The notes beneath the pieces were generated by a model, which worked only from the letters and a program-made list of their open reading frames with translations, ran no database searches and was not told where the DNA came from. 64,000 bases of DNA from the NCBI GenBank assembly GCA_021613535.1, contig CP075493.1, forward strand, positions 10,106,001-10,170,000, written 5' to 3'. This document shows, in pieces, positions 11,094-33,669 of this stretch (positions are counted from its first letter, which is position 1; every line of letters starts with the position of its first letter). Source of the stretch: Adineta vaga. Taxonomy: Eukaryota > Animalia > Rotifera. The translations under genes and the position numbers were made by a program.

Positions 11094-13243
11094 ATGTCTA
11101 CTGTTAAAAGTAAGAGATGATAAGATTGATTGAGTTTTAACGAATTTGTTTTCTTTTCTTTTTTTTTCAAGTTAATGTTAAATGGAATAAAGATGTATTT
11201 AAAGATATCGAAGTTGATACATCATTACCACCAGCTGTGCTCAAAGCTCAATTATTTTCAATCACAAATGTTCCAAGTGAACGACAAAAAATCATGGTGA
11301 AAGGACAAACAATCGGTGACGAAACTTGGGGCAAAGTAACATTGACGAATGGTTTAACACTATTGATGATGGGTTCAGCTGATCCAATACCAGAAATACC
11401 AACGGAAAAAGTGAAATTTTTAGAAGATATGACAGAAGCTCAACTTGCTCGACACATGCAATATCCAGGTGGTTTGAAGAATCTTGGTAAGTATATAGAC
11501 AGAAATGCCTTAAAATTTTGTTCATATGTTAAGATTCAATATTTGTTTAAACTTCATGTTTTCTATTTTAGGTAATACTTGTTATATGAATGCAACATTG
11601 CAATGTCTTAAAAGTGTATCTGAATTACGTGATGCTGTTAAACAATTTGTTCCAGCCAATGTTAGTCATTCCGGTCAAGGTGCTATGATGATTGATGGTT
11701 CACAAATGGTAACTAATGCATTGAAAACAACATATCAACAATTGGATGTAACAAGTGAAGCATTTATGCCGTTGACATTTCTTGCTACGATTCATCGAGA
11801 ATTTCCACGTTTTGCTGAAAAAGATGATCATGGACATTTAATGCAACAGGATGCCAATGAATTTTGGGTACAATTGATGCAAATTCTTCAAATGAATATT
11901 CCAGGAAAGAAATTAAATAATGAAATAGCATCGAATTCAATTGCTGATAAAAGTTTGATTGATCAATACTTTGGAATCAATACTCAAGCTATGTAAATCA
12001 TTCTTTTGAGCTTTTTCGATTAAATTAGAATATGTTTTTTGTTTTTCTAGAATGAAATGTAATGAAGCACCTGAAGAAACACCAACTGTATCTGAAGAGC
12101 GTTTACTTCAGCTCAGTTGTTTCATCAGTCAAGGTAAACTTCATTCAAATATTTCTTATTCATATATGAATTTTTCCTTTTTCTAGATGTGAAATATTTG
12201 TTAACTGGATTGAAAAATGTAAGTATTTGTTAAACATATCAAGATAGTTATATTCTCATTATGATAAATAGAGATTGGAAGAACACATAACGAAACATTC
12301 CTCGACACTTAATCGTGATGCTATTTTTACAAAATCGGTACTATAATTAGATTTCATTTTGTTATCCATGAAGAATTATTTTCCATTTTGTTTTAGACAC
12401 ATATTTCACGTTTACCTGCTTATTTGACAATTCAATTTGTACGATTTTTTTATAAAGAAAAAGAAAAAGTCAATGCGAAAATTCTTAAAGTAAAATGAAT
12501 ATATTCTTATCAAGAAAAGAATTCTCTGTTTTCTCTTTCTCTCTCTCTCTTGAAGGATGTTCAATATTCAATGGTTCTTGATGTTTTTGATTTATGTACA
12601 CCTGAATTACAAAAACGTTTGATACCAATACGCGAAAAAATCAAAGCAGCTGAAGATGCTAAACTTGATCGTGAACGCGCTAAAGTATAGAATTAATATT
12701 TTATCTGATTCAATCATAAGTTGTATCATTTAGAAACTCGGTGAACCATTTACAGAACCAAAAAATTTAACCCGATTACCAACATCATTTCCTGATGGTA
12801 ATAATCTATTCGATTGAATATTTTCAAGTACAAAAAGTGTTGTTTTGATTTTCTATTGAATAGATACTGGTTCAAATAACAGCGGTTTTTATCAATTAAA
12901 TGCTGTTCTTACACACAAGGGTCGATCTAGTTCAAGTGGACATTATGTTGCATGGGTTCGTCGTAGTCAAAGTAATAAATAAAACAACATTTTCCTTTAC
13001 ATTGATTGTTTTTTTTCTCATTACATAGCTGAATGGGTTATGTTTGATGATGAAAATGTCACACCAGTGACAGAAGAAGATGTATTAAAGTTATCAGGAG
13101 GTGGTGATTGGCATACAGCTTATCTATTAATTTATGGTCCACGAACAATTGAATATGAAGACAAATCAAATGATGGTGCAAGTGGAGAAGCCAATGTTAA
13201 TGCGATGGATACAACAACATCAGCCAATGGTGCCAAACCGTAG
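11094..13243 (+). CDS. USP14: Ubiquitin C-terminal hydrolase 14 (Ubp6 orthologue)
   Basis: UBL (VKWNK...KAQLFSITNVPSERQKIMVKG), Cys box GLKNLGNTCYMNA, QQDANE, His box THKGRSSSSGHYVAW, LSGGGDWHTAY. Confidence 0.96.
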
Positions 13244-22415: not shown

Positions 22416-25400
22416 ATGAGTTTGCAATCGTGTGTCAATCGACTTTTTAAACTGAATAGTAATTATTTATATGCTGATCAAGCCTTCAATCAAGCGTCTT
22501 CGTTGCAGACACTTTCAGATGATTTATACTCAGATCCACTTCGATTTCTATACGAATTGGTACAGAATGCCGACGATGCGTCAAGTACTCGCTTACAATT
22601 CGCTTTAATCGAAGGTAACTATTTGATTGTTGCTCATAATGGAAGAATCTTCAGTGAAGAAGATGTTCGAAGTTTATGCTCAATAAATAAAAGCACCAAA
22701 ACTCAAGATGCTCAAACTGTTGGTTATAAAGGTTTGGGATTTAAGGCAATTTTTGGAAAATCAGACTATGCCTTAATTATGACGAATAATGAAGCATTTC
22801 GATTCGATGCAACTCATGAATTTGAATGGACCTGGACAGATATTAATCGAAAAAAGTGGGAACGTGATAATAAACGAAAGTTTATTTATCCTTGGCAAAT
22901 TTGTCCTATTTGGACAGAACATCATGAAATTCCTGCACCTGTCCTTAGTTGGATATTGACTAATAGATTGTCAGTAAATATCATTATTCGTTTACTTAAT
23001 ATTGAAGAAACTCAGAATGCTTTTCGTCAGTTAGCTGATCAACCACATACATTTTTATTTCTTCGACATATTCGTGAATTGAAATTTAGTGAATCATTAA
23101 AATCATCAAGTATTTGTATTAAAAACGAACCAAATGAAATAATAAGATTGTTATATAATGCAAAGCAACATTCTCAATGGCTAGTATGTCGACGACAAGT
23201 TTTGGTTCCACCTGAAAAACTTGAAGATATTCGTCTGCCTAAAAAATTACGCTCGGTTCAATCTACTGAAATCATTTTAGCTGCTAAAATAAGTACACAA
23301 AATGAAAAGAAATTCATTCCTGTCTCTAATGACGATAATATTCTCTTTGCATATATACCAACTAAAATTTCAACATATAAGTTACCAATACTGGTTAATA
23401 CTAACTTTTTAACGAATGCAAATCGTGAACAGATTCATACGGATTCTACATGGAATCAATGGCTTTTTGAACGTATACCGCATGAAACAATTGAATGGAT
23501 GAAAGATATAATTATGAAACGTGAATGGGGTAGTAAAGGTTATGAACTATTACCAACTGCAGCTATGGGAAATGATATACTGACGAAAATATATAATGAC
23601 AATCGTTCACATGCTCTAAGCGATGCCAAGTTTATCTGTAACACACATGGAGAATATTTAACGGTACGCGAAGCTATTATTGATCTAACTGGTTTATCAA
23701 ATCAGCCGTTTGTTGATACTGAACTTATTCGTCAATATATTATTCACAATTATAACGGTTCCCGAATACCTTTACCAACTAATCCATTCGTTTCGTAACC
23801 CGTATTTGAGAGAACTTGGTGTTCGAATATTTGACTGGACATCTGCCATCAAAATGTTTGGTACAAGAACATTTCAAGAAAATTTTTCTCCCGATCGTGA
23901 TATGAAACTAATATCCTATTTATTTACTCACAGATCTGATGAGACTTTATCTCAGCTAATACATATTATACCATTTATTATGGATCGTAACAATGATCTA
24001 AGAAGACCAACTCATATTTACTTTCCATCAGAATTTGATGATGTAAGTTGGCATAGTTCTGATTGTCCAGAGATTATGTACATCAGGATGTAATGAATCA
24101 ACTTCAACATTCACACCGGCAGTGGCTCGAAGAACTGGGTGTAAAGATTAAAACTGATTTAACTTTTTTTCATCGAACAATTGTTCCGAATGCTGCGACA
24201 TTCATTCACCCTAACAATGCTGAATCGACAATTCAAAGATTATTTAATCTCTTTATTAATGGTGAAACAAATGTCGAACATTTACGAAGCGTTGAAAGGT
24301 TATCTTTATTAACTACAACAAATAAACTCATACCTGCAAATCGTCTATATCTATCAGCACCATATGAACCTCATTTATCATTAGATTCAGTGTTACCGTC
24401 AACATTTGATTTGTTCGTGTCACCTGTTTATTTACAACAGAATTTGCTTGGAGAGTGGAAATTATTTTTTTGCAAGTTAGGCGTTCAAGAGAACATAACT
24501 TTTGTAAAACTAAATGAAGATAATCGTTCATTTTTCACTTATAACGAAGATCAAAGAGGAATTATTTTTGGTTTAAATTCTCAACAAGTTCATGATTACA
24601 AATATAGAGAAACCTTAACTTTTCTTGAGTATACTGAACATACTTATGAATTTGCTCGATTTTTCTGGTCATATGTTATTAAGACTATCGATATACGCCG
24701 TTTAAATCGATCGGAAAGTGCTCTTTGGGGATCGCGTCATAAACGAGGTGCAACAGAAGGATCAGAGGTAAATAGTTTTCCACAATGGTTTGTACGTACA
24801 CGTTCATGCATACCAGTTTCGATCTTATTAGCAAATGGTCAATGCCAAAATGTTTGTTATTTAGCTTCTAAAGTTTTTACTGGACGGTTAAAATCTTTAA
24901 TTGGTCGATACTTACCTATATTTGATTGCATTGACAATTTAGCACTTCTAACAGATGAATGGGAAACATTTTTTCGATTTCGAACTGAACTTTCAATTGA
25001 TGATCATTTATTACTTCTCAAACAAATTTACGTACAAAATCAAAAAGGAATTGAGTACGAAGATGATATTCGTATTCAAAATATCTATGATAGTCTCTCA
25101 CACAAACTCTGTGGGATTGATCAAAATCAACGCTAATCGTATCGTGAGAAATGTCGAGCTATGAACATATGTTTATTAAGCACAACTAAACATTTTATGC
25201 CACCAGAAGAACTAAGGTTTTGGTCAATTTCTAATCTTTCAGTTCCGACTGAATTATACATAATTAAAATAGATGGAAAGAGTCGCCAACATCACTATCT
25301 ATCAGTTCTTCTATATGTACTTAATGTGGATAAGATTGATATCGATAATTTGAACTTTATACCAATTAATGCAAGTCTGTGTGATGAAATAGCCAATCGT

Positions 25401-26846
25401 TTGCAAAAATCTTACTTCCTCCAACTATTGAAATTTCATAAAATTAATCAGACAGATCAGATTCATCGATTAGATGATATTAAATTTTTTGAAGCCGAAA
25501 GATTGGAATTCTATATGAATAACGCGAACATATTCGTTGGTACTACACAAGTTCATGTCAAAAGTAATTGTTTTTATATCGTCAGACCATGGAATACTGA
25601 ACATGTGCTTGCTCAATTATCAGAAAAGATATGTATATTTCTTCAACTACCAATGATATCATTTAAAAATCACGTTGAAAAACTTTTAATCATTGAATCT
25701 GCTGATAGATACTTCATTCAACTGGGAATTCCTCTTGTGATTGAAGAAATCGTAAATAATGCTACGGAAAATCGCATTAAACAAACTAATCTTGATTTAT
25801 TTAACAAATTACCGTCAGCTACTCCTGCTGAATTATTACTTGCAGGTTTGAAAGCACAAAATTCATCTTGGACTGGATATGTTTATCACTATACGCATCT
25901 GGAAAATGCTATTTCGATTGTATGTGAACGATCAATAAAATCTCGTTATCAACTAACTCAATTGGGTAATTTTAAAGACTCATCTTCTTATGATTTTATG
26001 TCACATGTACACGATGAAGTTAATCGTTACGTTCGTTTTTATTTTCGTCCACGAACATTAACACAATATCATAACGAAAATCTTGGATCAGGTAAATGCA
26101 AGAAACGCAACGAATATACACCGATTTGTCCTGTCCCAATCTTTGTACGCATCGATCTTCAAGCAATACTCAATATTCCAAATATTCAATGGAAAGTAAG
26201 TTTAGGTGATATGTCTAGAACTCGAACCATATACGATTCAACACGGGATGTTATCGAACAATTTGATTTCGATGGTGTATTCAAAAATGATGATGCTGAA
26301 CTTAATGAGTATAGTATTCAACTTGAATTTTTGATTGAAAATGAATTGAATTTTCAACTGTTGCCAAACGATTGTATTCATCTTATTTGTCAAAATCGCG
26401 ATGCAAAAACAAGTTTAGAATGTGTTTTAAAAGAACAATTGATGGACACATATAGTCTTCAAATAGACAAAAACTATTTCTTTGAAAAAAATGATCGAAT
26501 ATTTATTAATCATGAACAAAATCAAGATCATATTTCTGTCAGAATGAATTCTGGCAATGAATGTCCTGCACGTGGCATGTTCATTGTTCAAATCAACTGC
26601 AGCCATCAACAAGAAACAATGGAATTAGCATGTAAAGGTAATAAGATATGTGCAGCGTTTCATCATGATCAGTTAACTACGATATATGGACGAGAAAAAT
26701 CAATAGATGTTTTGGTTGGCAAACAAAACTATGCAGTTTATTATCAATATGAAGGACGAATTTGGCTCATTTATACAAATCATTGTCAATATGAATTTGA
26801 TAAATTACATACTGAAAAATATGTTGAATTCGCACTATATGATTAA
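22416..26846 (+). pseudogene. Sacsin/NOV-type GHKL ATPase fused to a DarT (DUF4433)-like ADP-ribosyltransferase; intronless, ~1475 codons, two frameshifts and one stop
   Basis: GHKL motifs YELVQNADDA, AHNG, STK, VGYKGLGFKAIF. DarT-like motifs YHYTHLEN...IKSR, YVRFYFRPRT, CPVPIF, QLEFLI. ORFs 22413, 24063 and 25161 share a frame; ORF 23710 is offset by +1. Confidence 0.75.
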
Positions 26847-27738: not shown

Positions 27739-28734
27739 ATGTCAATATTTCGTTTAGTCAATCTTCCACAAGAAATCTTCTATTTAATTTTTCGATATCT
27801 TAGTAAAGAACAACTGGCTTATGCATTCTTTGGATTAAATGACAATTTAACATTAGCAGTGAAATATTTTATTGGACAAGAATTCAATTTAACAAGCATT
27901 GAAAATGAAAACAGTTTTCAATTTTCTTTAGAAACAATTTTACCATCAATTGGATTAAATCTTCGTTATTTATCCATCGGTCTTCCATATTCATTATCGA
28001 ATTATCTTGGATATATTCAACATTATTGTCCTAATTTAAATATTCTTAATATTCATTGTCAAACACAAAATGAAGATATTCGTCGTTATGCTACTTGTTT
28101 AATTCATGCTCAATTAATGTCTTTAACTATCATGTATAATAATCAAATCGTTGGTGAAGACACAAGTATGCGTTTAATCAATCGATATGATAATCGAGCA
28201 AATCAAATAATGCCATTGACAAATTCATTGATATTCAATTTAACATCATTAAATGATTTAATTTTATTGAAACGTTTTTCGGAAAGTAGTTTTTTATCAG
28301 ATGGTTTGTATATGATTGAATGTGTGGCAACTGGTCAATGGCTTGCCGATAGTAAAGATGATTTATGTGTTATGTCGAAAAAACTTCATCGTGATAGTAT
28401 TTTTTCTATAAAACAAATTGATATTGATCAATGTACTCGAGAATATGAATTATATAATGAAGGAACTCAACGTCGATTAACAGTTTTAATTCCGTATGAA
28501 GAAGAAGAAGAACGTTGGACATCATCTTCCATTCTTTCAACTCATCGTAAAGAATCTTCACGTTCATGTTCAAGTTTTACATTGGAAAAACTTGCCAATG
28601 ATGAAATCTTCTATATTCGACCATGTTATTCACATGCTAAACGTTTGCAGATATATGGAAAACGAATTATTGTATCACGATGTGAACATGAAAATGTGGC
28701 AAATCATTATTTTAAACTTCATCGAGTATCCTAG
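27739..28734 (+). CDS. Intronless F-box-like protein with a C-terminal beta-trefoil-like region
   Basis: N-terminal LVNLPQEIFYLIFRYL (F-box consensus), LRR-like LRYLSI...CPNLNILNI, three ~45-aa Y-x-[IL]...F-x-[IL] units at the C-terminus. Confidence 0.65.
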   Translation: MSIFRLVNLPQEIFYLIFRYLSKEQLAYAFFGLNDNLTLAVKYFIGQEFNLTSIENENSFQFSLETILPSIGLNLRYLSIGLPYSLSNYLGYIQHYCPNLNILNIHCQTQNEDIRRYATCLIHAQLMSLTIMYNNQIVGEDTSMRLINRYDNRANQIMPLTNSLIFNLTSLNDLILLKRFSESSFLSDGLYMIECVATGQWLADSKDDLCVMSKKLHRDSIFSIKQIDIDQCTREYELYNEGTQRRLTVLIPYEEEEERWTSSSILSTHRKESSRSCSSFTLEKLANDEIFYIRPCYSHAKRLQIYGKRIIVSRCEHENVANHYFKLHRVS

Positions 28735-28934: not shown

Positions 28935-30382
28935 CTATTGCCATCCATTGTCGAGTGCTATATGATTATCATAAACGATAAATTCTCGTACTACTTTCAA
29001 TGGTGGAAAGGACTTCATTGTTAAATAGTTGATAATTGTTTCATTTCTTTCAAGTGCATTATATCGACCACAATCAAATAAACGCATAGTAATCATATAA
29101 TGATAATTATTATCATCTAAACATTTGAATGCATTCTGAGATAAATGTAAACGTTCACCACTATATTGACATATTTGTCGAAGTTGTTCGTAGTTTTTCA
29201 TTTTGTGATTATCTTTTAGTAAAACTTTGTAATGAAATTCGAAATAATTTGATTCATTATTCCAGAATAGTTCTTTCTCAAGATCTTTTTCTGGTACACC
29301 TTCATTTGATGCCAAAGATTCGATTTTTAATCGTATAATATTGAATTTTTCAAAATGTTTATGAACTTCTTCTTCAAGTTTGGGTACAATCTCTGGATAT
29401 TCTCCACCATGATATGATGAAGTCATTAATTGTTGAAGCTTACGTTTTTTATTCGTGCTTTCCAAATCAATAAGTAAAACTTTATATTTTGTATTTTCAC
29501 ATGTTTTTTTCAAATTTTCAATAACTTCTTCAGTATTATGTGTACAATCAATTGTAACATGTAATTCAAATGTACCTTTGATACGATTGGTTGGTATAAG
29601 TGTATTTAACTGGGATTTGTTTTCTGCACTTTTTTCATTAACAAATTTGAGTACACTAAAAAGAAGAAGGAGACGAAGAAAGTACAATATGAAGGCAAAG
29701 TCATTCATCATAATGTTATTTACCTTTCCCAGCTATCGGTAACACTCGAATCATCACGTATTTGTTTCATTTCATTCAGCACATGTGATACACGTTTAAA
29801 ATCATGAATTGATTTTGTTTCGATCAATTGTTTCGCAATATCCAAATAACGAAAACCATGAAATAAATTTTTGAATAAATATATTTTTCCTGCTTCACTA
29901 GTTTCGGCAGGTTCACCACTACGTATTGGATACAAAGTATAATCATCAAGATTATACATTTTAACAGAGATGTAATTTTCGTAGAATGCAACTGTTTTTA
30001 TTCGTGATGGATCATAATAGTTGTCAAGATAAATTTTTTGAAAATCAATTTCTTCTTTGATTTTAAATTCAGCTGGTAAAAATACACATTCAACAGCTAA
30101 TAAATAATTTTTCTGAAGAAGTGTTTCAAAATTTTCAACAGTATGAACACAAACATCATATTGATTCCATAATTTATGTAACTCAAAGTTATGGAAATAA
30201 TCAATTTCATCTTCAAATGTTAATGGAGTATTTTTCAATGTACGTCTAACAATGAGAAGATCACGATCAGATGTTGCTGAATTAGTGCCGTATACCCATG
30301 AACCATAGTTATATATGCAAACAACTTCATCTTCTTTTATATCAAGTTCACGTAAAATTGCAGGTATAACAGAGCGATTCAT
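28935..30382 (-). CDS. Pol-beta-superfamily nucleotidyltransferase fused to an uncharacterised ExH-repeat domain (2 exons, intron 29656-29723)
   Basis: YGSWVYGT...SDRD motif with a later Asp (YDVCV). Splice GAA AG|gtaaat...ttttag|T GTA joins the two ORFs in frame. Second domain has FELHVT, RLKIE, YFEFHYK, HLSQNA, REFIVYD...LDNGW. Confidence 0.8.

Positions 30383-31061: not shown

Positions 31062-33669
<2,608 letters not shown>

Follow-up and report, generated by a model that had tools for sequence, protein, structure and literature searches.

A two-exon gene of the bdelloid rotifer Adineta vaga encodes a predicted Pol-beta-superfamily nucleotidyltransferase (NTase) joined to a second domain, here called domain X, which in many bacterial loci is found upstream of, or fused to, NTases of another family, AbiEii. 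By analogy with these and other relatives, the NTase may act as a writer on RNA 3' ends and domain X as a hydrolytic eraser, a tentative reading that we judge somewhat short of an even chance.

The gene lies on the minus strand of the window (the whole 64,000-nucleotide stretch of contig CP075493.1 analyzed here) and starts with an ATG at 30382. Its 459-aa product is identical to NCBI UJR16346.1, hypothetical protein I4U23_003252 [Adineta vaga]. The features of the gene are as follows.

29724..30382, minus strand: exon 1, predicted Pol-beta-superfamily NTase core and most of the helical bundle, residues 1-219
30155..30304, minus strand: NTase catalytic motif G27-S28, D39-x-D41, D76, kept in 18/18 full-length bdelloid homologues
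29849..29872, minus strand: K171/H175/R178 helix (KNLFHGFR), conserved in phage relatives
29656..29723, minus strand: intron of 68 nt, GT-AG, GTAAAT...TTTTAG, phase 2; unspliced, the junction reads AGG TAA
28935..29655, minus strand: exon 2, last helix of the NTase bundle (to about residue 239), domain X (about residues 245-459) and stop
29313..29582, minus strand: domain X repeat 1, predicted beta-alpha-beta-beta-alpha-beta, with E250, H252, T254, K278, Q295, R328, K330 and E332, which are 88-97% conserved in 140 distant homologues
28941..29246, minus strand: domain X repeat 2 and tail, with E359, H361, K363, S392, N394, T409, R411, E444, D449, D455 and W458, which are 82-97% conserved in 140 distant homologues

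Gene structure, transcripts and conservation

All motifs picked out in the first-pass annotation are present in the protein: G27-S28, D39-x-D41, D76, KNLFHGFRYL, FELHVT, RLKIE, YFEFHYK, HLSQNA, TMR and REFIVYD..LDNGW. The splice it proposed is also observed. Contigs from three of the four runs examined (X1, X2 and X5, from two studies) carry the joint 29655-29724, which skips exactly the 68 bases of the intron (CT..AC), with zero depth over the intron bin, and the fourth run, X11, reads through the intron as DNA would. None of the runs is on record as RNA, and we take them as such from their skipped GT-AG introns and poly(A) ends. The splice count leaves aside further runs, whose 15 listed joints, of 26, do not include 29655-29724.

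The NTase-X fusion is conserved across bdelloids: a search for longer proteins returned 18 matches, 17 of them named as Adineta, Rotaria or Didymodactylos, and all share the same two-part layout. Crude dN/dS values against five metagenomic loci (two of them near-identical) stay below 1 in both exons, at 0.15-0.25 in exon 1 and 0.31-0.58 in exon 2. The AlphaFold model of the whole protein has a pLDDT of 83.9 and a pTM of 0.80. Metagenomic bdelloid contigs L093 and L094 hold tandem NTase-X copies, some of them broken, and two gene models of the family (P0067 and P0068) are extended by ankyrin/TPR repeats. The 18 near-invariant residues of domain X described below are all kept in the 459-aa A. 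vaga protein; across the 18 full-length bdelloid proteins, eight keep all of them, one keeps 17 and nine keep 8-15. These sequences suggest a family that expands, with domain X decaying in the paralogues. Since X residues decay in 9/18 proteins and NTase residues never do, the NTase would not always need an active X.

Neighbouring genes

The locus sits among genes whose order is kept in a metagenomic bdelloid contig: malic enzyme, NTase-X gene, F-box-like gene and DarT-like gene. On the plus strand at 31400-33669, divergent from the NTase-X gene, lies a multi-exon gene with eight RNA-verified introns, which we take to be malic enzyme. A single-ORF F-box-like gene (27739-28734, plus strand; Pfam E 0.008), syntenic in contig L092, converges on the NTase-X gene with 200 bases between the stops. 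In Pfam, the 3' ORF of a large gene beyond it (24063-26846, plus strand) matches a DarT-type ADP-ribosyltransferase domain at E 7.9e-16. This is a further domain of toxin-antitoxin type, 2 kb away from the NTase-X gene; the DarT-like ORF is also syntenic in L092, at 11303-12443. Contigs from runs X6 and X13 join 27456 to 18991 with one extra A, possibly reflecting a repeat or a paralogous 3' end.

The N-terminal nucleotidyltransferase

The N-terminal half is predicted to be an intact Pol-beta NTase. It carries the superfamily motif, hG[GS]x9-13DhD followed by a third Asp, as defined in passages of PMC3985639, and its AlphaFold model, compared by Foldseek, combines the NTase fold with a helical C-terminal bundle. 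G27-S28, D39, D41, D76, K171, H175 and R178 are kept in all 18 full-length bdelloid proteins, and the last three are predicted to contact the triphosphate. The Pfam Polbeta family matches this half at E 4.9e-5, below cut-off, and the PHROG 388 nucleotidyltransferase family at E 1.6e-8. Foldseek neighbours are minimal NTases (3c18, ANT(4') and LinB; E 4e-6 to 5e-4), a PDB sequence search with the fusion returns minimal NTases only, and Hailong HalB is the top structural row for the full model (Z 9.2, rmsd 4.5, 174 aligned). KNTase/ANT(4') and HalB, each a minimal NTase with a four-helix bundle, are the best structural matches of the N-terminal half; however, identity is 13-14%, the TM-score is about 0.4 or less, and the rotifer gene has neither an antibiotic-resistance nor a HalA context. 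No Pfam match above noise to the PAP-associated, OAS1_C or Mab-21 families links it to animal TUTases, OAS or cGAS.

Phages carry relatives, with pairwise E values of 7e-9 to 3e-6 to the N-terminal half. When P0143, an intronless NTase-X fusion discussed below, is used as query, 78 phage records match one or other half; among those that match the NTase are Bacillus phages, Lak megaphages and Xoo-sp13. Three phage NTase loci were opened: one NTase lies two genes from an RNA ligase and polynucleotide kinase, another beside a tRNA cluster, and the third among NAD-salvage genes.

The suggested resemblance to RlaP does not extend to a family match. Pfam RlaP (PF10127) gives no match at E<=0.05 for exon 1, P0143 or P0055; P0123, alone among the relatives tested, passes the RlaP cut-off (27.9 bits versus 23). 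The rotifer NTase resembles RlaP in its Pol-beta core and helical C-domain and in phage relatives that lie near RNA ligase, kinase or tRNAs, but its exon 1 lacks the RlaP match and it is fused to domain X. Parts of PMC12776372 describe RlaP as adding 1-2 NMP to an RNA 3'-OH, and the rotifer enzyme may work in the same way. It also falls outside the AbiEii/MenT (DUF1814) family as defined by Pfam AbiEii, the motif II Arg and the +DxxD motif IV; neither Pfam nor PADLOC gives an AbiEii match for the rotifer protein (P0041).

Domain X: fold, conserved residues and distribution

Domain X is predicted to adopt a tandem ferredoxin-like fold. Its model (pLDDT 86.6, pTM 0.82) consists of two beta-alpha-beta-beta-alpha-beta units, and the internal duplication proposed earlier holds: the two halves match each other profile-to-profile (probability 93.9%, E 1.6e-7) with their ExH strands aligned. 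No Pfam family covers the domain, NCBIfam gives nothing above cut-off, and a PDB sequence search with X returns nothing. Solved structures give generic ferredoxin-like matches only (best Z 7.3, rmsd 4.8), so that fold searches offer no structural precedent for the chemistry of X. Matches to predicted viral structures are good, but the ten rows at E<1e-5 (TM 0.50-0.74) are all unnamed or uncharacterised, and the ESM Atlas returns 30 unnamed clusters, mostly actinobacterial, with a low recognition score. The two-unit architecture is shared with dimeric alpha+beta barrels and ferredoxin-like repeats such as aldoxime dehydratase, chlorite dismutase, sulfur oxygenase reductase and SAM lyases, but with Z at most 7.3, rmsd of 4-5 A or worse and 5-13% identity, and function is not transferable from these proteins to X. 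The 2H phosphoesterases and CYTH/TTM enzymes are marked by paired HxT/S or ExExK motifs. The second repeat of X has HxK rather than HxT. No 2H, CYTH or HIT fold occurs among the structural rows listed for X, which for 2H and CYTH number 50, though X may still belong to one of these families.

A profile search with X finds 1,902 representatives at E<=0.001, or about 1,900 clusters at 50% identity. In 140 sequences less than 40% identical to the rotifer protein, 18 residues, mostly polar, are near-invariant (86-97% conserved): E250, H252, T254, K278, Q295, R328, K330, E332, E359, H361, K363, S392, T409, R411, E444, D449, D455 and W458. These invariant polar residues suggest that X is catalytic, and phosphoesterase chemistry, as first proposed, is plausible from the sequence pattern. 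Named carriers include bacteria, phages, giant viruses, amoebozoans, a haptophyte, a foraminiferan, chytrids and bdelloids. The domain is rare and patchy in bacteria, occurring in 9/301, 1/401, 3/301 and 2/301 genomes of four phylum samples, each including its seed, or 15/1304 genomes with the four seeds counted. A literature search found no paper on domain X or on the A. vaga gene; the 2016 RlaP survey with its supplements and the PADLOC documentation, either of which may name X, were outside that search.

Domain X beside AbiEii nucleotidyltransferases in bacteria

Bacterial X occupies the slot that AbiEi/MenA3 (COG5340) antitoxins take, immediately upstream of a DUF1814 NTase. In 72/80 bacterial loci X has an AbiEii-family NTase as its immediate downstream neighbour (52) or as its fusion partner (20), although this share is inflated, the loci having been drawn with patterns of one subfamily that included an X-AbiEii fusion and being related to one another. 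In the 52 two-gene loci, the NTase follows X within 600 bases; the NTase is upstream in three of the remaining loci and absent from three, and in two the contig ends too soon. All 12 partners tested match Pfam AbiEii at E 7e-13 or better, and the R-x-x-x-D-x-D and KDLYD motifs of the partners are intact. Evenly drawn phylum samples show the link in 6/11 non-seed matches; of the five without an AbiEii neighbour, four are divergent and one is partial. Both annotated plasmid loci that were opened also show the link. No conserved effector gene accompanies X in the 80 loci.

PADLOC files X as 'AbiEi' (E 1.9e-33 for the rotifer protein), a label presumably given by position; neither the Pfam AbiEi family nor an N-terminal wHTH domain is matched in X at E<=1. 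The likeness to AbiE/MenAT systems thus lies in the place of bacterial X in the upstream antitoxin slot of an AbiEii-family (DUF1814) NTase. X differs from the antitoxins of these systems in lacking the wHTH and the Pfam AbiEi match and in its predicted tandem ferredoxin-like fold, and the rotifer NTase differs in not being DUF1814.

A further difference concerns the toxin itself. Passages of bioRxiv 10.64898/2026.01.19.700257, PMC11375011 and PMC3985639 describe AbiEii and MenT toxins as extending the tRNA CCA end and the antitoxin as inducing toxin auto-phosphorylation at AbiEii T65 or MenT1 T39, a phospho-acceptor two residues before the first catalytic Asp (D67 and D41, respectively). At this position the X-partner NTases have P (67), A (14), V (3), C (2) or I (1) and Ser/Thr in 0/87; it was readable in 87 of 88 partner matches, a set that includes related sequences and a few duplicates. 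Judged by this residue, the partners would be unable to use the known phosphorylation switch. According to parts of bioRxiv 10.64898/2026.01.19.700257 and PMC11375011, MenT4 is not phosphorylated and MenA1 can inhibit by binding alone.

Several loci from the bacterial samples are arranged differently. Two Myxococcota loci carry Ham1-X followed by AbiEii, and in two others from the Myxococcota samples (L112 and L114) a divergent X is followed immediately not by an NTase but by an ORF resembling an FAD-dependent oxidoreductase. At locus L119, an ORF at 2-1294 lies just upstream of the X-AbiEii pair; it is presumably reverse-transcriptase-like, with a YADD motif.

Fusion partners and viral domain X

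The partners of X were surveyed in 59 long representatives, chosen by length from the best 150. Seventeen are fused to a Ham1-like domain, five to a Pol-beta NTase (three of them bdelloid), three to AbiEii, two to a methyltransferase and one to an RNA ligase. The commonest Pfam-named partner is thus a degenerate Ham1 fold, the usual catalytic motifs, as generally known, being in register in 0/17. The methyltransferase fusions occur in chytrids. Eukaryotic proteins, including P0161 from Emiliania huxleyi and P0199, P0150 and P0190, fuse an AbiEii-like NTase, a degenerate Ham1 domain and X; in P0199, and probably in P0161, both of haptophyte type, a T4-type RNA ligase is fused as well, giving a toxin-repair module in one chain.

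Phages carry X alone or behind a MazG-like part (PHROG 1247, whose C-terminal half matches X at E 6e-7). An RNA ligase is annotated within 5 kb of X in three of five phage loci opened, a count made without a control for chance. Of the other two loci, one is surrounded by tRNA genes and one is close to the gene of a DUF2828 protein, which has a weak Ro60-vWA match. Phage RNA-repair clusters are described in passages of PMC7824862 as answers to host attacks on tRNA. Stand-alone X also occurs in large viral contigs (L001 5989-6630, L002, and L003 5875-6606). In L001 it lies between what are presumably a thioredoxin-like gene and a DNA polymerase region.

Origin of the rotifer gene and its intron

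Foreign genes are common in bdelloids, so transfer alone is not news. Both halves had been said to have microbial rather than metazoan affinity, and this holds: named animal matches are all bdelloid rotifers, with no other animal carrier of X named among the matches. Bdelloid X sequences group as a single clade, with SH-aLRT 99.5 in one analysis and UFBoot 100 in a second, made on 62 of 173 sequences. P0099 is sister to this clade, and the two belong to a weak group (UFBoot 82) with chytrid proteins and intronless fusions; AbiEii-linked bacterial X sequences lie elsewhere in the tree. Gene transfer into bdelloids is likely, and from these sequences the donor could as plausibly be a microbial eukaryote or a giant virus as a bacterium.

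The intron had been placed at the domain junction, but the true border between the domains comes about 25 residues further downstream. Phage NTases that stand alone run one helix further past the intron position, model helix 217-239 spans it, and stand-alone X proteins begin near G247, all of which places the intron within the NTase, in its last helix. Nor were the domains joined through the intron, because intronless fusions occur both in bdelloids, where a second clade (L100 and L101) has fused paralogues in one open frame, and beyond the bdelloid clade, in P0123 and P0143, the latter 34-38% identical to bdelloid proteins. Exon shuffling at the domain border is rejected for both reasons. The simplest history would be acquisition of an already fused gene, with the intron gained later in one lineage.

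The unspliced junction does read AGG TAA, as claimed, but no meaning of the in-frame stop is supported. GTAA is the commonest local donor (8/14 other RNA-verified introns nearby, among the introns listed, with one non-GT-AG intron excluded), and any GTAA donor in phase 2 yields a TAA stop. Six metagenomic bdelloid loci (L092-L096 and L098; L097 is a near-copy of L092) have the in-frame TAA at this position too, within a donor that reads GTAAG or GTAAA. The NTase-only isoform expected from intron retention fares no better: contigs of X1, X2 and X5 show no intron-retaining transcript, and the product would be without the last NTase helix. Regulated retention is rejected on these grounds and on the common GTAA donor. 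Of the numerous 219-aa 'NTase-only' proteins, mostly from metagenomic sources, nearly all of the 50 inspected end at the intron stop, and we take these proteins for what gene callers make of unspliced DNA. In run X4, one contig breaks off loosely within the purine-rich stretch of the intron, at 29680, and continues into unrelated sequence. The intron is ordinary.

Proposed function and alternatives

In the reading preferred here, the predicted Pol-beta NTase would extend RNA 3' ends, probably those of tRNA, by one nucleotide or a few, and domain X would be a metal-dependent hydrolase that removes or limits such additions; the rotifer pair would then be a self-editing repair enzyme for damaged RNA ends. 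An RNA substrate is suggested by the phage neighbourhoods and by analogy with the activities of RlaP and MenT/AbiEii. A hydrolase that trims RNA-end additions is favoured because two unrelated NTase families have recruited X, because X sits in the antidote slot of AbiEii-type toxins whose usual antidote chemistry is unavailable, because viruses carry X alone near repair genes such as RNA ligases, and because its conserved core looks catalytic. The first-pass annotation had raised RNA repair and a writer-eraser pair as candidates; gene neighbourhoods back that idea. Applying the bacterial logic to the rotifer takes a further inferential step, because its NTase belongs to another family and X decays in many paralogues, and any link of the gene to desiccation or infection is speculation. 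Against a writer-eraser pair, the third phage NTase locus lies among NAD genes, and rotifer X appears to group with chytrid and unassigned sequences rather than with the AbiEii-linked bacterial group (the UFBoot 82 grouping).

The commonest fusion partner, Ham1, points to free nucleotides rather than RNA, and X might accordingly be a small-molecule phosphohydrolase, acting on an NTP, an odd nucleotide or pyrophosphate and steering its partner by way of how much substrate or product is present. Every recurrent X partner, whether a Pol-beta or AbiEii NTase, a Ham1-like or MazG-like protein or an RNA ligase, handles NTPs and releases pyrophosphate. The Ham1 and MazG fusions fit this explanation better than an RNA eraser, the acidic and basic invariant residues would suit metal-phosphate binding, and weak BFVD rows name pyrophosphatase (E 0.05) and adenylate-kinase (E 0.007) proteins. 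We nevertheless consider it unlikely: the Ham1-like partners lack their usual catalytic motifs, and bacteria possess housekeeping pyrophosphatases, so that a patchy gene coupled to a toxin family looks more like a conflict module. The top structural rows contain neither a CYTH nor a pyrophosphatase fold, which in itself would not decide the matter. It is improbable that X is instead a regulator or antitoxin without catalytic activity, blocking the NTase by binding either to it or to a nucleotide, which in the rotifer would make X an auto-inhibitory or sensing domain. The antitoxin slot and the 20/80 fusions would fit such a role, as would the often regulatory nature of ACT-like ferredoxin folds and the binding of MenA1 and AbiEi to their toxins, as reported in parts of bioRxiv 10.64898/2026.01.19.700257 and PMC11375011. 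Yet X partners two NTase families of differing sequence and also stands alone in phages and giant viruses, and invariant buried-type E/H/R/K residues in all contexts are more typical of an active site than of an interface. A similarly long shot is that the NTase makes a nucleotide signal or a protein-primed oligonucleotide, as HalB does (summarised in passages of PMC13434031) or by MntA-type AMPylation, and that X degrades or reads the product. This would accord with HalB as top structural row, with SAM-AMP lyase and phage SAM lyase rows for one X repeat (Z 4.6-7.7) and with the chytrid methyltransferase fusions, but HalB is within 1 Z unit of unrelated rows and is mostly helical, the lyase rows sit amid dozens of generic ferredoxin folds, and the 80 bacterial loci share no effector gene.

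Implications of the eraser reading

In its widest form, the eraser reading would make X a new enzyme family that strips toxin-added nucleotides from tRNA 3' ends, serving as the antitoxin of a phosphorylation-independent AbiEii/MenT branch and as a viral counter-defence protein and, once domesticated by an animal, repairing RNA ends as part of a writer-eraser fusion. This full set of roles is possible but doubtful. The value of the finding lies in domain X itself, which comprises many clusters outside any Pfam family, has an invariant core like that of an enzyme and keeps to a fixed position beside AbiEii/MenT-type NTases. In the relevant passages of bioRxiv 10.64898/2026.01.19.700257, PMC11375011 and PMC3985639, AbiEii/MenT toxins are neutralised by antitoxin binding or auto-phosphorylation. 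The rotifer fusion and the two-gene pairs of harmless bacteria make the idea of a catalytic antidote cheap to test, and if it is true, an antidote of this kind, carried also by phages and giant viruses, would be both a new antitoxin mechanism and a new counter-defence protein.
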